Source: Escherichia coli
GTDB lineage: Bacteria; Pseudomonadota; Gammaproteobacteria; Enterobacterales; Enterobacteriaceae
Assembly: GCF_036507355.1 (NCBI RefSeq)
Contig: NZ_AP027877.1
Length of the DNA stretch: 64,000 nucleotides
Strand: one strand, 5' to 3'
The notes beneath the pieces were generated by a model that saw only the letters and a list, made by a program, of their open reading frames with translations, made no database searches and was not told the DNA's origin. This document shows positions 14,098 to 47,260 of this stretch, one piece after another (position 1 is the stretch's first letter; each line of letters begins with the position of its first letter). The position numbers and the translations under genes are program-made.

Positions 14098-17004
14098 ATG
14101 CCTTTTACACTTGGTCAACGCTGGATCAGCGATACAGAAAGCGAATTGGGACTTGGAACCGTTGTCGCGGTGGATGCGCGAACTGTCACTTTACTTTTCC
14201 CATCTACTGGTGAAAACCGTCTGTACGCACGCAGTGATTCCCCCGTGACCCGCGTGATGTTCAACCCTGGTGATACCATTACCAGCCATGACGGCTGGCA
14301 GATGCAAGTCGAAGAAGTAAAAGAAGAAAATGGCTTGCTGACCTATATCGGTACTCGCCTGGATACTGAAGAGTCCGGCGTAGCCCTGCGTGAAGTTTTC
14401 CTTGATAGCAAACTGGTGTTCAGCAAACCGCAGGACCGCCTGTTTGCCGGGCAGATTGACCGTATGGACCGCTTTGCGCTGCGTTATCGCGCGCGTAAGT
14501 ATTCCAGCGAACAGTTCCGTATGCCGTACAGCGGCCTGCGCGGTCAGCGTACCAGCCTGATCCCGCACCAGCTCAACATCGCTCATGATGTTGGCCGCCG
14601 CCACGCGCCGCGCGTCCTGCTGGCTGACGAAGTGGGTTTAGGGAAAACCATTGAAGCCGGGATGATCCTTCATCAGCAACTGCTCTCTGGCGCTGCTGAA
14701 CGTGTGCTGATTATCGTCCCGGAAACCTTACAGCATCAGTGGCTGGTAGAAATGCTGCGCCGTTTCAACCTGCGCTTTGCGCTGTTTGATGATGAGCGTT
14801 ATGCCGAAGCTCAGCACGATGCTTACAACCCGTTCGACACCGAACAGCTGGTGATTTGCTCGCTGGATTTTGCCCGTCGTAGCAAACAGCGCCTGGAACA
14901 TCTCTGTGAAGCCGAATGGGACCTGCTGGTGGTCGATGAAGCGCATCACCTGGTGTGGAGCGAAGATGCGCCAAGCCGTGAATATCAGGCCATTGAACAA
15001 CTGGCAGAGCACGTGCCGGGCGTTCTGCTGCTGACCGCGACCCCGGAACAGCTGGGGATGGAAAGCCACTTCGCCCGTCTGCGTCTGCTGGACCCGAACC
15101 GTTTCCACGATTTTGCACAGTTCGTTGAAGAGCAGAAAAATTATCGTCCGGTTGCGGACGCCGTTGCCATGCTGCTGGCAGGTAACAAACTGAGCAATGA
15201 CGAACTGAACATGCTCGGCGAGATGATCGGCGAGCAGGATATCGAGCCGCTGTTGCAGGCAGCAAACAGCGACAGCGAAGATGCCCAGAGCGCCCGTCAG
15301 GAGCTGGTTTCGATGCTGATGGATCGCCACGGCACCAGCCGCGTGCTGTTCCGTAACACCCGTAACGGTGTGAAAGGATTCCCGAAACGCGAGCTGCACA
15401 CCATTAAGCTGCCGCTACCGACGCAGTATCAGACGGCTATTAAAGTCTCCGGCATTATGGGCGCACGCAAAAGTGCGGAAGATCGCGCCCGCGATATGCT
15501 CTACCCGGAGCGTATTTATCAGGAATTTGAAGGTGATAACGCCACCTGGTGGAACTTCGATCCGCGCGTTGAGTGGCTGATGGGCTACCTGACCAGCCAT
15601 CGCTCTCAGAAAGTGCTGGTGATCTGCGCTAAAGCTGCCACTGCGCTGCAACTGGAGCAAGTACTGCGCGAACGTGAAGGTATCCGCGCTGCTGTGTTCC
15701 ACGAAGGCATGTCGATTATTGAGCGTGACCGCGCTGCCGCCTGGTTTGCTGAAGAAGACACCGGCGCACAGGTACTGCTGTGCTCGGAAATCGGTTCTGA
15801 AGGACGTAACTTCCAGTTCGCCAGCCACATGGTAATGTTTGACCTGCCATTCAACCCGGATCTGCTGGAGCAGCGTATTGGTCGTCTGGATCGTATCGGT
15901 CAGGCGCACGATATTCAGATCCATGTGCCTTATCTGGAAAAAACTGCTCAGTCGGTGCTGGTGCGCTGGTATCACGAAGGTCTGGATGCATTCGAGCACA
16001 CCTGCCCGACCGGACGCACTATTTACGATAGCGTCTACAACGATCTGATTAACTATCTGGCTTCACCGGATCAAACCGAAGGCTTTGACGATCTGATCAA
16101 AAACTGCCGCGAGCAACATGAAGCGCTGAAAGCACAACTGGAACAGGGGCGTGACCGCCTGCTGGAAATCCACTCCAACGGTGGCGAAAAAGCCCAGGCA
16201 CTGGCAGAAAGCATTGAAGAGCAGGATGACGATACCAACCTGATCGCCTTCGCCATGAACCTGTTCGATATTATCGGTATCAATCAGGACGATCGCGGCG
16301 ACAACATGATCGTGCTGACCCCGTCCGATCATATGCTGGTGCCGGACTTCCCTGGCCTGTCGGAAGATGGCATCACCATCACCTTTGATCGTGAAGTGGC
16401 GCTGGCGCGTGAAGATGCACAGTTTATTACCTGGGAGCATCCGCTGATCCGCAACGGTCTGGATCTGATCCTTTCTGGCGATACTGGTAGCAGCACGATT
16501 TCACTGTTGAAAAACAAAGCGTTGCCGGTAGGTACGCTGTTGGTGGAACTGATTTACGTGGTCGAAGCCCAGGCGCCGAAGCAGTTGCAGCTCAACCGCT
16601 TCCTGCCACCGACGCCGGTACGTATGCTGCTGGATAAAAATGGCAACAACCTGGCGGCCCAGGTGGAGTTTGAAACCTTTAACCGCCAGCTTAACGCGGT
16701 CAACCGTCACACCGGCAGCAAACTGGTTAATGCCGTGCAGCAGGATGTTCACGCTATCCTTCAGCTGGGTGAAGCGCAGATCGAGAAATCGGCCCGTGCA
16801 TTGATTGATACCGCACGTAACGAAGCCGACGAAAAACTGTCTGCCGAGCTGTCTCGTCTGGAAGCGCTGCGCGCAGTGAACCCGAACATTCGTGACGACG
16901 AACTGACCGCCATTGAGAGCAACCGTCAGCAGGTAATGGAAAGCCTGGATCAGGCAGGCTGGCGTCTGGATGCCCTGCGTTTGATCGTTGTAACGCATCA
17001 GTAA
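14098..17004 (+). CDS. rapA: RNA polymerase-associated Swi2/Snf2 ATPase RapA (HepA)
   Basis: 968-aa product with helicase motifs DEVGLGKT and DEAHH. Confidence 0.95.
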
Positions 17005-17015
17005 CGGAGCCGAAA

Positions 17016-17675
17016 ATGGGGATGGAAAACTACAATCCACCGCAGGAACCCTGGTTGGTTATCCTGTATCAGGATGACCACATTATGGTGGTCAACAAGC
17101 CGAGCGGTTTGTTGTCTGTGCCGGGTCGTCTGGAAGAGCACAAAGACAGCGTGATGACGCGCATTCAGCGTGATTATCCGCAGGCAGAATCGGTGCATCG
17201 TCTGGATATGGCTACCAGCGGCGTGATTGTAGTGGCGCTGACCAAAGCCGCGGAGCGGGAGTTAAAACGCCAGTTCCGCGAGCGCGAGCCGAAAAAGCAG
17301 TATGTGGCCCGCGTCTGGGGGCATCCATCCCCTGCGGAAGGTCTGGTAGATCTGCCGCTGATTTGCGACTGGCCAAACCGCCCGAAACAGAAAGTCTGTT
17401 ACGAAACAGGTAAACCTGCGCAGACGGAATATGAAGTGGTGGAGTATGCGGCGGATAACACGGCAAGAGTGGTGTTAAAACCGATTACCGGGCGTTCGCA
17501 TCAATTGCGTGTGCATATGCTGGCGCTGGGGCATCCGATTCTCGGCGATCGTTTTTATGCATCACCAGAAGCGAGAGCAATGGCACCGCGTTTGTTGCTA
17601 CATGCAGAGATGCTGACGATTACCCATCCGGCGTATGGCAATAGTATGACGTTTAAAGCGCCAGCGGATTTTTAA
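17016..17675 (+). CDS. rluA: 23S rRNA / tRNA pseudouridine synthase A
   Basis: 219-aa product with HRLDMATSG catalytic motif. Confidence 0.93.
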   Translation: MGMENYNPPQEPWLVILYQDDHIMVVNKPSGLLSVPGRLEEHKDSVMTRIQRDYPQAESVHRLDMATSGVIVVALTKAAERELKRQFREREPKKQYVARVWGHPSPAEGLVDLPLICDWPNRPKQKVCYETGKPAQTEYEVVEYAADNTARVVLKPITGRSHQLRVHMLALGHPILGDRFYASPEARAMAPRLLLHAEMLTITHPAYGNSMTFKAPADF

Positions 17676-17689
17676 TAGTCACGCTGGCG

Positions 17690-17790
17690 CGATTAGGTAG
17701 GCTAGAGAAGGCGTTAACGCCACATCAGGCAATTTTGCGCCGATTGCCTGATGCGACGCGGGCCGCGTCTTATCAGGCCTACAGTTTGAA
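17690..17790. repeat. REP element cluster
   Basis: cctgatgcgacgcgggccgcgtcttatcaggcctac and related palindromic units between rluA and djlA. Confidence 0.65.
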
Positions 17791-17792
17791 AC

Positions 17793-18608
17793 TTATTTAA
17801 ACCCTTTCTGCTGCTTTATCAGCTCATACGCCTGCTGAATTTCCTGCGCTTTCTGCTTCGCCATCTCCATCATCTCAGGCGGCAAACCTTTCGCTACCAA
17901 CTTATCGGGATGGTGTTCACTCATCAGCTTACGGTAGGCACGTTTGATGGTGGTCGCATCATCCGTAGGCTTCACGCCCAGCACATTACAGGCATCTTCC
18001 AGCGTCGGGCCACGCTGCGCTTGCTGCCAGTTACCACCGCCAGATTGCTGCTGATAACCGCCGCCAAACTGTGCACCGCCCTGCATCATGCGTAAAAACT
18101 GGTCAAACTGGGCACGGGAGATCCCTAATTCTTCAGCAATAACATACAGCACCGCCCGTTCATTCGGGTGCAGTGAACCATCAGCAAATGCCGCCTGAAT
18201 CTGGATCTCCAGAAACATACGAATTAAGTCAAAACGACCAAAGCAGACACTGCGAAACTGGCGCATCTTTTCGCGCAGCGGGTAATTGTCTGATTTTCCC
18301 ACCCGGAACGCGTTTTGCGCCGCAGTACGGGAAGCGCCATGAAGGTTCATTCGGTCCATCAACTGGCTGGCGATATGAATATCAGCCTCCGTGACGCGAC
18401 CTTTGGATTTGGTTAAATGCCCCATCACTTCAAAAGTGGTGGCAAAAAACAGCGCCTGACGCTCACGCTGGTTGGCGAACCACGCCATTTTACGGCTACG
18501 GGCTTTATCAAACATATGGCCAATTAACAGGCCTAACACTACGCCCCAAAAGCCGCCGCCCATCAGTAAGGCCACGGCCACGCCAATGATTTTTCCCCAA
18601 TACTGCAT
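17793..18608 (-). CDS. djlA: DnaJ-like membrane co-chaperone DjlA
   Basis: 271-aa product [22 protein letters not shown]... with C-terminal J-domain HPD motif; ORF track start trimmed. Confidence 0.93.
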
Positions 18609-18862: not shown

Positions 18863-21217
18863 ATGAAAAAACGTATCCCCACTCTCCTGGCCACCATGAT
18901 TGCCACCGCCCTTTATAGTCAACAGGGACTGGCAGCCGACCTCGCCTCACAGTGCATGTTGGGCGTGCCAAGCTATGACCGTCCTCTGGTACAGGGCGAT
19001 ACCAATGACTTACCCGTGACTATCAATGCTGACCACGCGAAAGGGGACTACCCGGATGACGCCGTGTTTACTGGCAGCGTGGATATCATGCAGGGTAACA
19101 GCCGTCTGCAGGCCGACGAAGTGCAGCTCCATCAAAAAGAGGCACCAGGACAACCGGAGCCGGTACGTACCGTTGATGCGCTCGGTAATGTCCATTACGA
19201 CGATAACCAGGTGATCCTCAAAGGGCCGAAAGGCTGGGCGAATCTGAACACCAAAGATACCAACGTCTGGGAGGGTGATTACCAGATGGTGGGTCGCCAG
19301 GGACGCGGTAAAGCGGACCTGATGAAACAACGTGGCGAAAACCGCTATACCATTCTGGATAACGGTAGCTTTACCTCCTGTCTGCCGGGTTCTGACACCT
19401 GGAGCGTGGTAGGTAGCGAAATTATTCATGACCGCGAAGAACAAGTGGCCGAAATCTGGAACGCCCGTTTTAAAGTTGGCCCGGTGCCAATCTTCTACAG
19501 CCCCTATTTGCAGTTACCGGTGGGTGACAAACGCCGCTCTGGTTTCTTGATCCCGAACGCCAAGTACACCACCACCAACTACTTTGAGTTCTACCTGCCA
19601 TATTACTGGAACATCGCGCCAAATATGGATGCCACCATCACGCCGCATTATATGCATCGTCGTGGCAACATCATGTGGGAGAACGAATTCCGCTACCTCT
19701 CCCAGGCGGGCGCTGGCTTGATGGAACTGGACTATCTGCCTTCAGATAAAGTCTATGAAGATGAACACCCGAACGATGACAGTTCACGTCGTTGGTTATT
19801 CTACTGGCAACACTCCGGGGTCATGGATCAGGTGTGGCGTTTCAACGTCGACTACACCAAGGTCAGCGATCCTAGCTACTTCAATGATTTCGATAACAAG
19901 TACGGTTCCAGTACTGACGGCTACGCAACGCAAAAATTCAGCGTTGGCTATGCGGTGCAAAACTTCAATGCCACCGTTTCAACCAAGCAGTTCCAGGTCT
20001 TCAGCGAACAGAACACCAGTAGCTACTCGGCAGAGCCGCAGTTAGACGTTAACTACTACCAGAATGATGTTGGTCCGTTTGATACGCGTATTTACGGCCA
20101 GGCAGTGCACTTTGTTAACACCAGAGACGACATGCCTGAAGCAACTCGTGTTCACCTGGAACCGACCATCAATTTGCCGCTCTCTAATAACTGGGGCAGC
20201 ATCAATACCGAAGCGAAGTTGCTGGCAACCCATTATCAGCAAACCAATCTTGACTGGTATAACTCCAGAAACACGACCAAGCTGGACGAATCCGTTAACC
20301 GCGTAATGCCGCAATTCAAAGTTGACGGCAAAATGGTCTTTGAACGCGATATGGAAATGCTGGCTCCGGGTTATACCCAAACGCTGGAACCGCGCGCGCA
20401 GTATTTGTACGTGCCGTATCGCGATCAGAGCGACATCTATAACTACGACTCGTCTCTGCTGCAATCTGACTACTCTGGCCTGTTCCGGGACCGGACTTAC
20501 GGCGGTCTTGACCGTATTGCCTCCGCTAACCAGGTGACGACCGGTGTCACATCTCGCATATATGATGATGCTGCCGTTGAACGTTTTAATATTTCCGTTG
20601 GTCAAATCTACTATTTCACGGAGTCTCGCACTGGCGATGACAACATAACATGGGAGAATGACGACAAAACGGGCTCACTGGTGTGGGCAGGCGATACTTA
20701 CTGGCGTATCTCCGAGCGTTGGGGATTGCGTGGCGGGATTCAGTACGATACACGTCTGGATAACGTAGCGACCAGTAACTCCAGCATTGAATACCGTCGG
20801 GATGAAGACCGTCTGGTACAGCTGAATTACCGTTACGCCAGCCCGGAATATATTCAGGCTACGCTGCCTAAGTACTATTCCACTGCTGAGCAATATAAGA
20901 ATGGTATTTCGCAGGTAGGTGCTGTCGCCAGCTGGCCAATTGCCGATCGTTGGTCCATTGTTGGGGCCTACTACTACGACACCAATGCGAACAAGCAAGC
21001 TGACTCTATGTTAGGTGTGCAATACAGCTCCTGCTGCTATGCAATTCGCGTCGGTTACGAGCGGAAGCTGAACGGTTGGGATAACGATAAACAACATGCG
21101 GTATATGACAACGCAATCGGCTTTAACATCGAACTTCGCGGCCTGAGCTCCAACTACGGTCTGGGTACGCAAGAGATGCTGCGTTCGAACATTCTGCCGT
21201 ATCAAAACACTTTGTGA
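18863..21217 (+). CDS. lptD: LPS assembly outer membrane protein LptD (Imp/OstA)
   Basis: 784-aa product with signal peptide [24 protein letters not shown]. Confidence 0.95.
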
Positions 21218-24749: not shown

Positions 24750-25598
24750 ATGGCGACATACCTTATTGGCGACGTTCATGGTTGTTACGATGAACTGATC
24801 GCATTGCTGCATAAAGTAGAATTTACCCCTGGGAAAGATACCCTCTGGCTGACGGGCGATCTGGTCGCGCGCGGCCCGGGTTCGCTGGATGTTCTGCGCT
24901 ATGTGAAATCCTTAGGCGACAGCGTACGTCTGGTGCTGGGCAATCACGATCTGCATCTGCTGGCGGTATTTGCCGGGATCAGCCGCAATAAACCGAAAGA
25001 TCGCCTGACACCGCTGCTGGAAGCGCCGGATGCCGACGAGCTGCTTAACTGGCTGCGTCGCCAGCCTCTGCTGCAAATCGACGAAGAGAAAAAGCTGGTG
25101 ATGGCCCACGCAGGGATCACGCCGCAGTGGGATCTGCAGACCGCCAAAGAGTGCGCGCGCGATGTAGAAGCGGTGCTGTCGAGTGACTCCTATCCCTTCT
25201 TTCTCGACGCTATGTACGGCGATATGCCAAATAACTGGTCACCGGAATTGCGGGGGCTGGGAAGACTGCGGTTTATCACCAACGCCTTTACCCGTATGCG
25301 TTTTTGCTTCCCGAACGGTCAACTGGATATGTACAGCAAAGAATCGCCGGAAGAGGCCCCTGCCCCACTGAAACCGTGGTTTGCGATTCCTGGCCCTGTC
25401 GCTGAAGAATACAGCATCGCCTTTGGTCACTGGGCATCGCTGGAAGGCAAAGGTACGCCGGAAGGTATTTACGCGCTGGATACAGGCTGTTGCTGGGGCG
25501 GTTCATTAACCTGCCTGCGCTGGGAAGATAAACACTATTTTGTCCAGCCGTCGAACCGACATAAGGATTTGGGTGAGGGAGAGGCGGTCGCGTCTTAA
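24750..25598 (+). CDS. apaH: Diadenosine tetraphosphatase
   Basis: 282-aa product [16 protein letters not shown]... with metallophosphatase motifs GDLVARG and GNHD. Confidence 0.94.
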
Positions 25599-25909
25599 AT
25601 CCCGTCGAGCATAAAATCTAATGCTCCTTTAATCAACGTTCGGTGCGCGCTGGCATCGCAAAATTTCGTTCCCAGCGCGTTAACTGGAACAGTTGCAGTC
25701 TCATGCGTCATGAGCACATATTCTTTGCCGTCTACCAGTAAAAGGATTGGGTTAAGCCGTTCTGGTGGGCGAATACGGATAAATCGTTCAATAGGTGTTA
25801 ATGGAATAACAATACGGCGATTAATCACACCAATAATGTCGCTGGTAACATCGATAACAAAGGGAAACGCGGCGTTCCTGCTGCGACTGCGGTATACCGT
25901 AAATTGCAT
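25595..25909 (-). CDS. ccdB: CcdB-family toxin (chromosomal ccd locus)
   Basis: 104-aa product [27 protein letters not shown]... similar to F-plasmid CcdB (MQFKVYTYKRES...DVQSDIID...); immediately downstream of ccdA with a 2-bp gap; stop overlaps the apaH stop. Confidence 0.8.
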
Positions 25910-25911
25910 CG

Positions 25912-26145
25912 CTAGAAGCTCCGGTACTCATCAGAGAAACATCCGGTTTCATCAGCCAATTGATTTAACGCAGCGATAGCTTCTGCGTTCTCTTCACGCC
26001 AACGTGTTGCTGCATGTTTTTTAAGTTCAGCATTGAGCGCAACCGTAAGGGTGGCGCTCATATTTAAGCCTGCATCACGAGCGCGATTGACTAACTCACG
26101 GTCGACGGTGACGGTCACACTTTGTGTGGTACGTTTTGCAGTCAT
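25912..26145 (-). CDS. ccdA: CcdA-family antitoxin (chromosomal ccd locus)
   Basis: 77-aa product with ...SVTVTVDRELVNRAR...RWREENAEAIAALN... resembling F-plasmid CcdA; small acidic C-terminus; operon with ccdB. Confidence 0.78.
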   Translation of the reverse strand: MTAKRTTQSVTVTVDRELVNRARDAGLNMSATLTVALNAELKKHAATRWREENAEAIAALNQLADETGCFSDEYRSF

Positions 26146-46887: not shown

Positions 46888-47260
46888 AACACCCTCCAGA
46901 GAATATTCACTCACTTTATTTGCATATTAATTCACAATGATGACGTAAATCAATGCAAATCTGCTTACCGACGAATTTCTGGCAAACGGCGGCATTCTGG
47001 AGATATGGGCGCTAAAAGTCAACTTAATGGCAGGATTTTTATATTATTTTGTGGCTCATGCATGTTTTACAGGCATTAAGCGACAAAAAGATCATCTAAC
47101 CTGTTCTGGAAAACGCTTGCGCAGCAAGAAGATTGCATGAAGTAAAAACGAGTAGAAAAAAGTGGACCAAATGGTCAAAATTTACATTAAAACAACAAAA
47201 ATAGAAGACAAAACATGTGATTTTTAGCGTTTGCATAAAATTTAAAAACATAACACAAAA
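46888..47260 (-). promoter_or_regulatory. carAB tandem-promoter control region (ARG box and pyrimidine-responsive sites)
   Basis: AT-rich leader upstream of carA containing the ARG-box-like palindrome tgcatattaattca. Confidence 0.6.

Follow-up and report, generated by a model that had tools for sequence, protein, structure and literature searches.

The window, a 64-kb stretch of Escherichia coli DNA, carries rluA on the plus strand and djlA on the minus strand, and the two genes converge on an intergenic spacer of 117 bp. The features of this locus are:

rapA: 14098-17004, plus strand
rluA (219 amino acids): 17016-17675, plus strand; left flank of the spacer, from the list of open reading frames
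rluA-djlA intergenic spacer: 17676-17792, no strand; lies between the stop codons and is the unoccupied espY1/yabPQ site
REP palindrome 1: 17697-17731, minus strand; degenerate, in reverse orientation, placed by the Rfam naRNA4 alignment and by spacer comparison
Linker between the two REPs: 17732-17744, no strand; 13 bp, ATTTTGCGCCGAT
REP palindrome 2: 17745-17782, plus strand; canonical, TGCCTGATGCGACGCGGGCCGCGTCTTATCAGGCCTAC, placed by an exact 18-mer core and the Rfam alignment
djlA (271 amino acids): 17793-18608, minus strand; right flank of the spacer
lptD: 18863-21217, plus strand; follows djlA

Both flanking genes end in TAA. The stop codon of rluA has its last base at 17675, and that of djlA occupies 17793-17795 on the minus strand, whereas djlA of K-12 ends in TGA. 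A collinear genome, NZ_OZ197100.1, annotates rluA at identical coordinates, and the window spacer aligns end to end with the spacers of other E. coli, for example that of strain EC2641.

Two inverted REP palindromes, which together make up one BIME, cover 86 of the 117 bp (~74%). Judged by the published consensus sequences, REP 1 would be Y-like and REP 2 Z2-like. The Rfam family naRNA4 (RF02564), which is built from the REP/BIME unit, matches 17700-17779 on the plus strand with 64.7 bits (gathering score 59.5); the alignment spans the whole model (positions 1-77), and its first hairpin contains two non-canonical pairs. An earlier note on this DNA had described the spacer as about 118 bp long and largely REP sequence, an estimate that these values bear out. 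The 18-mer REP core GCGTCTTATCAGGCCTAC occurs in four exact copies in the window, compared with 0.03 expected by chance, and one further near copy brings the number to five, which was reached in 0 of 100 shuffles. Like other E. coli REP/BIME elements, such as REP325 and the naRNA4 unit, the spacer element consists of two imperfect inverted palindromes of ~35-38 nt joined by a short linker, is extragenic and sits at gene 3' ends, and its core, GCCTGATG...CTTATCAGGCCTAC, is repeated elsewhere in the window. With the REP core, the dispersed copies, the extragenic 3'-end position and the inverted pair all present, the spacer is a BIME. Unlike REP325, which is a cluster of six repeats (PMC4550694), the window has a single unit with a partly decayed left REP.

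The two halves of the BIME are conserved to different degrees. The right REP matches its counterparts in other E. coli exactly, and the left part of the spacer differs from strain EC2641 at 11 positions. The left REP is unusually decayed (17690-17731), its CCGG now reading CTAG, and its individual hairpin is weakened by this degeneracy and by the two non-canonical pairs. When folded as a transcript, the spacer reached -49.3 kcal/mol from the plus strand (z = -3.8) and -48.4 kcal/mol from the minus strand (z = -4.3), with the inverted REP arms pairing across ~34 bp. By these folding models the spacer is structurally competent to form hairpins from both strands. In a simple promoter/terminator scan, the stretch 17500-18000 gave a single match, inside rluA, and no canonical intrinsic terminator within the spacer.

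The K-12 interval and the espY1 islet

In K-12 MG1655, 1507 bp separate the end of djlA (58179) from the end of rluA (59687), and this interval holds yabP (58474-59124) and yabQ (59121-59279). In a three-way alignment with EC2641, the homology of the window and K-12 reaches both stop codons, and the sequences between these are unrelated. Comparing the spacer with the K-12 interval in both directions (blastn-short, word size 7) returned only chance words of 8-11 nt. A direct search for a yabP/yabQ remnant in 17676-17792 gave a 10-nt word as the best blastn-short match (E = 0.17), and tblastn of EspY1, YabP and YabQ found nothing in that interval.

The two K-12 genes correspond to successive parts of a single effector gene. 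YabP is 86% identical to residues 1-192 of EspY1 from O145:H28 (248 amino acids), and YabQ aligns to residues 202-248 at the EspY1 C-terminus. Judged from these alignments, yabP and yabQ together represent a frameshifted espY1, with the break inside the repeat region. In O157:H7, O145:H28 and others, RefSeq labels the intact gene at djlA-rluA 'T3SS effector EspY1', and in its annotation espY1 always adjoins a frameshifted fragment of an IS4/Tn5-family transposase DNA-binding domain. The islet, 1.4-1.5 kb long in K-12 and O157, looks foreign, with a GC content of 44.3% (against 51.8% for the window) and the neighboring transposase fragment. The chromosomal site of the espY1 islet in O157:H7 and O145:H28, and of yabP/yabQ in K-12, is identical to that of the window spacer and is bounded by the same stop codons. 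Unlike the islet allele, the window contains neither espY1 nor the transposase fragment, and the two share no intergenic sequence; conversely, REP sequence is absent from the islet allele by both alignment and short-word BLAST.

These comparisons settle most of what the earlier note had said about K-12. It had placed about 1.5 kb with yabP/yabQ at this site, had reported no remnant of these genes in the window, and had allowed that K-12 might after all have an equally short spacer; the alignment instead gave 1507 bp versus 117 bp, and the searches for a remnant came back empty. Its description of yabP/yabQ as a broken relative of EspY agrees with the match of both products to EspY1. The further label of pentapeptide-repeat pseudogene held for the EspY-type pseudogene and less so for the repeat: the Pfam pentapeptide model PF00805 reaches 19.2 bits in EspY1 alone, under its cut-off of 20.2, and matches neither YabP nor EspY2 of the window. 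RefSeq names some homologues 'pentapeptide repeat-containing protein', and EspY3 has been described with pentapeptide repeats (PMC6313403; PMC3256949).

Two incidental points concern the islet and its name. The 58 bp of the K-12 islet next to the djlA stop (positions 3681-3738 of the retrieved K-12 locus, L001) recur with ~91% identity beside a yjhR pseudogene (positions 2501-2558 of L034, NZ_CP020520.1). This second copy occurs in many genomes, some of them without the islet, and the sequence looks like a short repeat common to two accessory regions. A literature search for 'yabP/yabQ' returned almost only the Bacillus sporulation genes that bear the same names.

espY2 and other accessory features of the window

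A second EspY-type locus lies near the left end of the window, at the sgrR-thiB site:

espY2 (189 amino acids): 1058-1627, minus strand; EspY-family T3SS effector-like gene, assigned by translation, homology and annotation in relatives
espY2 islet: 829-1833, no strand; ~1 kb between the sgrR stop and the TPP riboswitch region

Members EspY1 to EspY5 are defined by an N-terminal WEx5F motif, as in Salmonella SopD (PMC6313403; PMC3256949), and EspY1 and EspY4 are reported as translocated effectors (cited in PMC6313403). The window protein carries this motif as WETLRNLF at residues 47-54 and is 40% identical to EspY1 over 168 amino acids (E = 6e-29). Motif and homology thus place the ORF at 1058-1627 in the EspY family as a predicted effector, in line with the earlier note, which had pointed to an effector-like gene at sgrR-thiB. 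It also has the same site and the same length as espY2 of O157:H7 (ECSP_0073, PMC3256949). At the DNA level the islet shares 98.7-98.9% identity with regions that carry the annotation espY2 ('T3SS effector EspY2') in relatives, and its GC content is 42.8%, compared with 51.8% for the window. Of 5426 complete E. coli genomes, 1034 contain it at 80% coverage or more; in K-12 and most others the match is confined to query positions 1006-1158 (window 1834-1986), the part that belongs to the TPP riboswitch. Pfam and NCBIfam scans gave no match in the window EspY2, and for EspY1 and YabP they yielded nothing beyond the sub-threshold pentapeptide score of EspY1. Searching the 64 kb by tblastn with EspY1, EspY2, YabP and YabQ for other EspY paralogues recovered espY2 only, next to a 25-amino-acid repeat-like match (E = 0.056) inside an espX1-like ORF.

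This espX1-like ORF is itself intact (56169-57590, plus strand, 473 amino acids) and, like espY2, an orphan T3SS effector gene; its neighbors are rpsT on one side and a fimbrial operon on the other. Together with espY2 it brings the orphan effector genes of the window to two. The espX1 of the closest complete genome is cut short by IS1. The window has its own IS1 copy of 768 bp at 59077-59844 (insA/insB ORFs at 59132-59829) inserted in a fimbrial usher gene, and the ORF at 58031-59098 is the C-terminal part of that usher gene; in the closest relative IS1 lies elsewhere, in caiD and beside espX1. A chromosomal ccdA (77 amino acids)/ccdB (104 amino acids) toxin-antitoxin pair occupies 25595-26145 on the minus strand between apaH and folA, and is annotated in the closest relative, too. 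Two RNAs score above their Rfam gathering scores: the sok antitoxin RNA at 63529-63681 (plus strand, the hokC/mokC locus near nhaA) and the ES003 sRNA at 46935-46987 (minus strand). Finally, the araA-araD intergenic region (10645-10812) is a REP-containing spacer with a REP core at 10685-10702. About one third of the sampled E. coli alignments break in it, at query position 9919 (window ~10747), and in O157 and F9792 the start of araD lies 30 bp further on. This spacer appears to be a second length-variable BIME.

Frequency and polarity of the empty site

We probed 5426 complete E. coli genomes with 901 bp spanning the rluA-djlA junction. A contiguous short spacer was found in 3182 of them. 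The K-12-type interval itself, at 80% coverage or more, is present in 2080; the empty state is the majority state in E. coli. Short spacers vary in length: in ST131 the spacer measures 149 bp and contains one extra REP, and ~730 genomes, counted as a group, fall into the 90-95% identity band that such a 149-bp variant would produce.

The remaining ~160 genomes are in other states, and the two that we inspected both carry an insertion sequence within the BIME. In P19_598 (NZ_CP067241.1; positions 4377-5772 of the retrieved locus, L006), IS621 of the IS110 family lies inside the right REP, and in KE50 (NZ_CP141083.1; positions 4377-5961 of L007), IS1397 of the IS3 family lies inside the loop of an extra REP. 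Both are experimentally known REP-specific elements (PMC1525189). The window BIME, unlike these two, is free of any IS. Across strains, this one spacer has therefore received at least three different mobile inserts, namely the espY1 islet, IS621 and IS1397, and it is mildly interesting that a single BIME was hit, in independent events, by an effector islet and two insertion sequences with REP specificity. The N-terminal transposase fragment still found beside espY1, together with the listing of IS4-family members among REP-targeting IS elements in the literature, invites a more far-reaching reading: the rluA-djlA BIME would be a recurrent integration hotspot at which a REP-targeting IS4/Tn5-type element delivered the espY1 islet, after which the BIME eroded down to the stop codons. 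We consider this improbable; if true, it would amount to REP-directed capture of an orphan T3SS effector gene.

To place the two alleles in order, we turned to other species. A degenerate-pattern scan of a collection of species-representative genomes retrieved the rluA 3' end from 26 contigs, and wherever djlA followed convergently downstream of rluA, the gap was short:

Escherichia albertii: 169 bp
Escherichia whittamii: 116 bp
Escherichia sp. MOD1-EC7003: 117 bp
a divergent 'E. coli' representative: 149 bp
Salmonella diarizonae: 58 bp
several Citrobacter species: 53-193 bp
other genera of the Enterobacteriaceae: 32-229 bp

The spacers from Escherichia can be aligned with the window BIME base by base, and those of Salmonella, Citrobacter and other Enterobacteriaceae mostly contain a REP-like or another short palindrome. 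None of these short-gap species representatives has espY1. Because homologous REP spacers without espY1 occur in other Escherichia, and short spacers beyond the genus, the REP spacer is ancestral and the islet derived. The only espY1-bearing contig that the scan retrieved (JAIJJM010000692.1, L021; 1646 bp) is filed under a 'Collinsella sp.' MAG. It encodes the end of rluA, an espY1 that is 89% identical, and the end of djlA, and almost certainly represents E. coli sequence that contaminated the bin.

The earlier note had further remarked that the window distributes this gene family differently from K-12 or O157, and this is correct: K-12 has the espY1 pseudogene only and lacks espY2, and O157:H7 has both genes. 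Both are found in O157:H7 F6667, O145:H28 RM12761 and YZMc3-1. The combination of espY2 with an empty rluA-djlA site recurs in NZ_OZ197100.1, which is the best match to the window among complete genomes (99.0% over 24 kb, collinear), in F9792 (O169:H41 group), and in nine other genomes from the 30 best matches, which are collinear and come from baboon, cattle, pig, human or unrecorded sources. With at least 11 complete genomes sharing it, the espY2-present, espY1-absent state is a minority pattern, neither unique nor new. As a rough bound, it probably accounts for less than 10% of espY2-positive genomes. An evenly spaced sample of all genomes included 11 espY2-positive rows, of which the top one alone had an empty rluA-djlA site. 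In the other ten, 1.3 kb or more of additional DNA lies somewhere between espY2 and djlA, and both of those that we checked have espY1 at the rluA-djlA site. This cross-tabulation of espY1 and espY2 from one long query was workable for about two thirds of the sampled rows. For the rest, the alignment was split at the araA-araD REP region and one half was listed.

Origin and role of the empty allele

Taken together, the data point with considerable confidence to one explanation, in which the window carries the ancestral, unoccupied BIME allele, the islet is derived, the BIME acts as a 3'-end element, and the espY1 and espY2 islets segregate independently. The 1.4-1.5-kb islet would have been acquired horizontally by the K-12 and O157 lineages and would have replaced the whole BIME, stop codon to stop codon. 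The site in the window would never have been filled, and nothing would have been deleted in place. The presence of espY2 without espY1 would then be one of the combinations in which two independent single-gene islets segregate within E. coli.

The absence of the islet might also reflect a precise, scarless deletion of espY1/yabPQ at this site, which would account for that absence and for nothing more. With REP sequence entirely missing from the islet allele, a deletion could not regenerate the BIME, and the BIME found in the window aligns base by base with its counterparts in E. albertii, E. whittamii and 3182 E. coli genomes; in-place deletion is effectively refuted, and we consider it extremely improbable. 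Less probable still, to the point of being negligible, is an assembly artefact in which the islet is concealed by a collapse or a wrong join: over 24 kb the window is collinear, in one alignment piece, with several independently finished genomes, and ordinary unique coding sequence borders the junction on both sides.

Secondary reversion deserves closer attention, even though we judge it unlikely. Here, an ancestor of the strain would have possessed the espY1 islet, and recombination across rluA/djlA with an empty donor would have restored the BIME allele. The prevalence of extra DNA among the sampled espY2-positive genomes (10 of 11, with espY1 in the two checked) would fit such a history, as would the fact that about equally close genomes (98.8-99.0% over 24 kb) are a mixture of islet-bearing (O145:H28, Ec1120) and empty ones. 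Divergence also rises locally. Between the window and NZ_OZ197100.1, rapA-rluA is 99.55% identical (0.45% diverged), whereas the 3' 300 nt of djlA (17793-18092) contain 9 mismatches (~3%), and the 901-bp junction segment finds its best match to any complete genome at 97.4%. This local excess at the djlA 3' end and the spacer may mark a small recombination import, or it could equally reflect REP decay plus ordinary variation; it is modest and stems in part from the decay of one REP. Vertical retention fits the data just as well, the empty allele being both the majority and the ancestral one. Whether retained or regained, the allele present in the window is of the ancestral type.

Turning to the role of the element in the preferred explanation, the BIME is most likely a 3'-end element shared by the convergent rluA and djlA. 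REPs have been described as dual terminator/stabiliser elements on the basis of REP325 and of genome-wide REP-associated expression, and convergent gene pairs with REPs show higher expression (bioRxiv 10.64898/2026.03.23.713779). By analogy, we infer a role for the rluA-djlA BIME in the 3' UTRs, as a stabiliser and as a limit on convergent read-through. Hairpins formed from either strand would impede 3'-5' exonucleases and thereby stabilise the upstream mRNAs, and they would limit transcription that runs on from either gene into the other.

The empty rluA-djlA site belongs to a well-known and unremarkable polymorphism, in which single-gene effector islets are present or absent around a common REP element. 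The earlier note was right that the site is empty and that no remnant is left, but its framing as a loss is slightly misleading, because the empty state is the majority (3182 of 5426) and the ancestral one, and K-12 and O157 are derived. The overall importance of the finding is small. For annotation, it means that no gene is to be expected at rluA-djlA, and the site may serve as a minor strain marker. It also sets the polarity of a small virulence-gene polymorphism, as the presence of espY1 and espY2 is routinely scored in VFDB-style typing papers. Read in this direction, yabP/yabQ of K-12 is a decayed, acquired effector gene, and the empty rluA-djlA site is the ancestral state of Escherichia.
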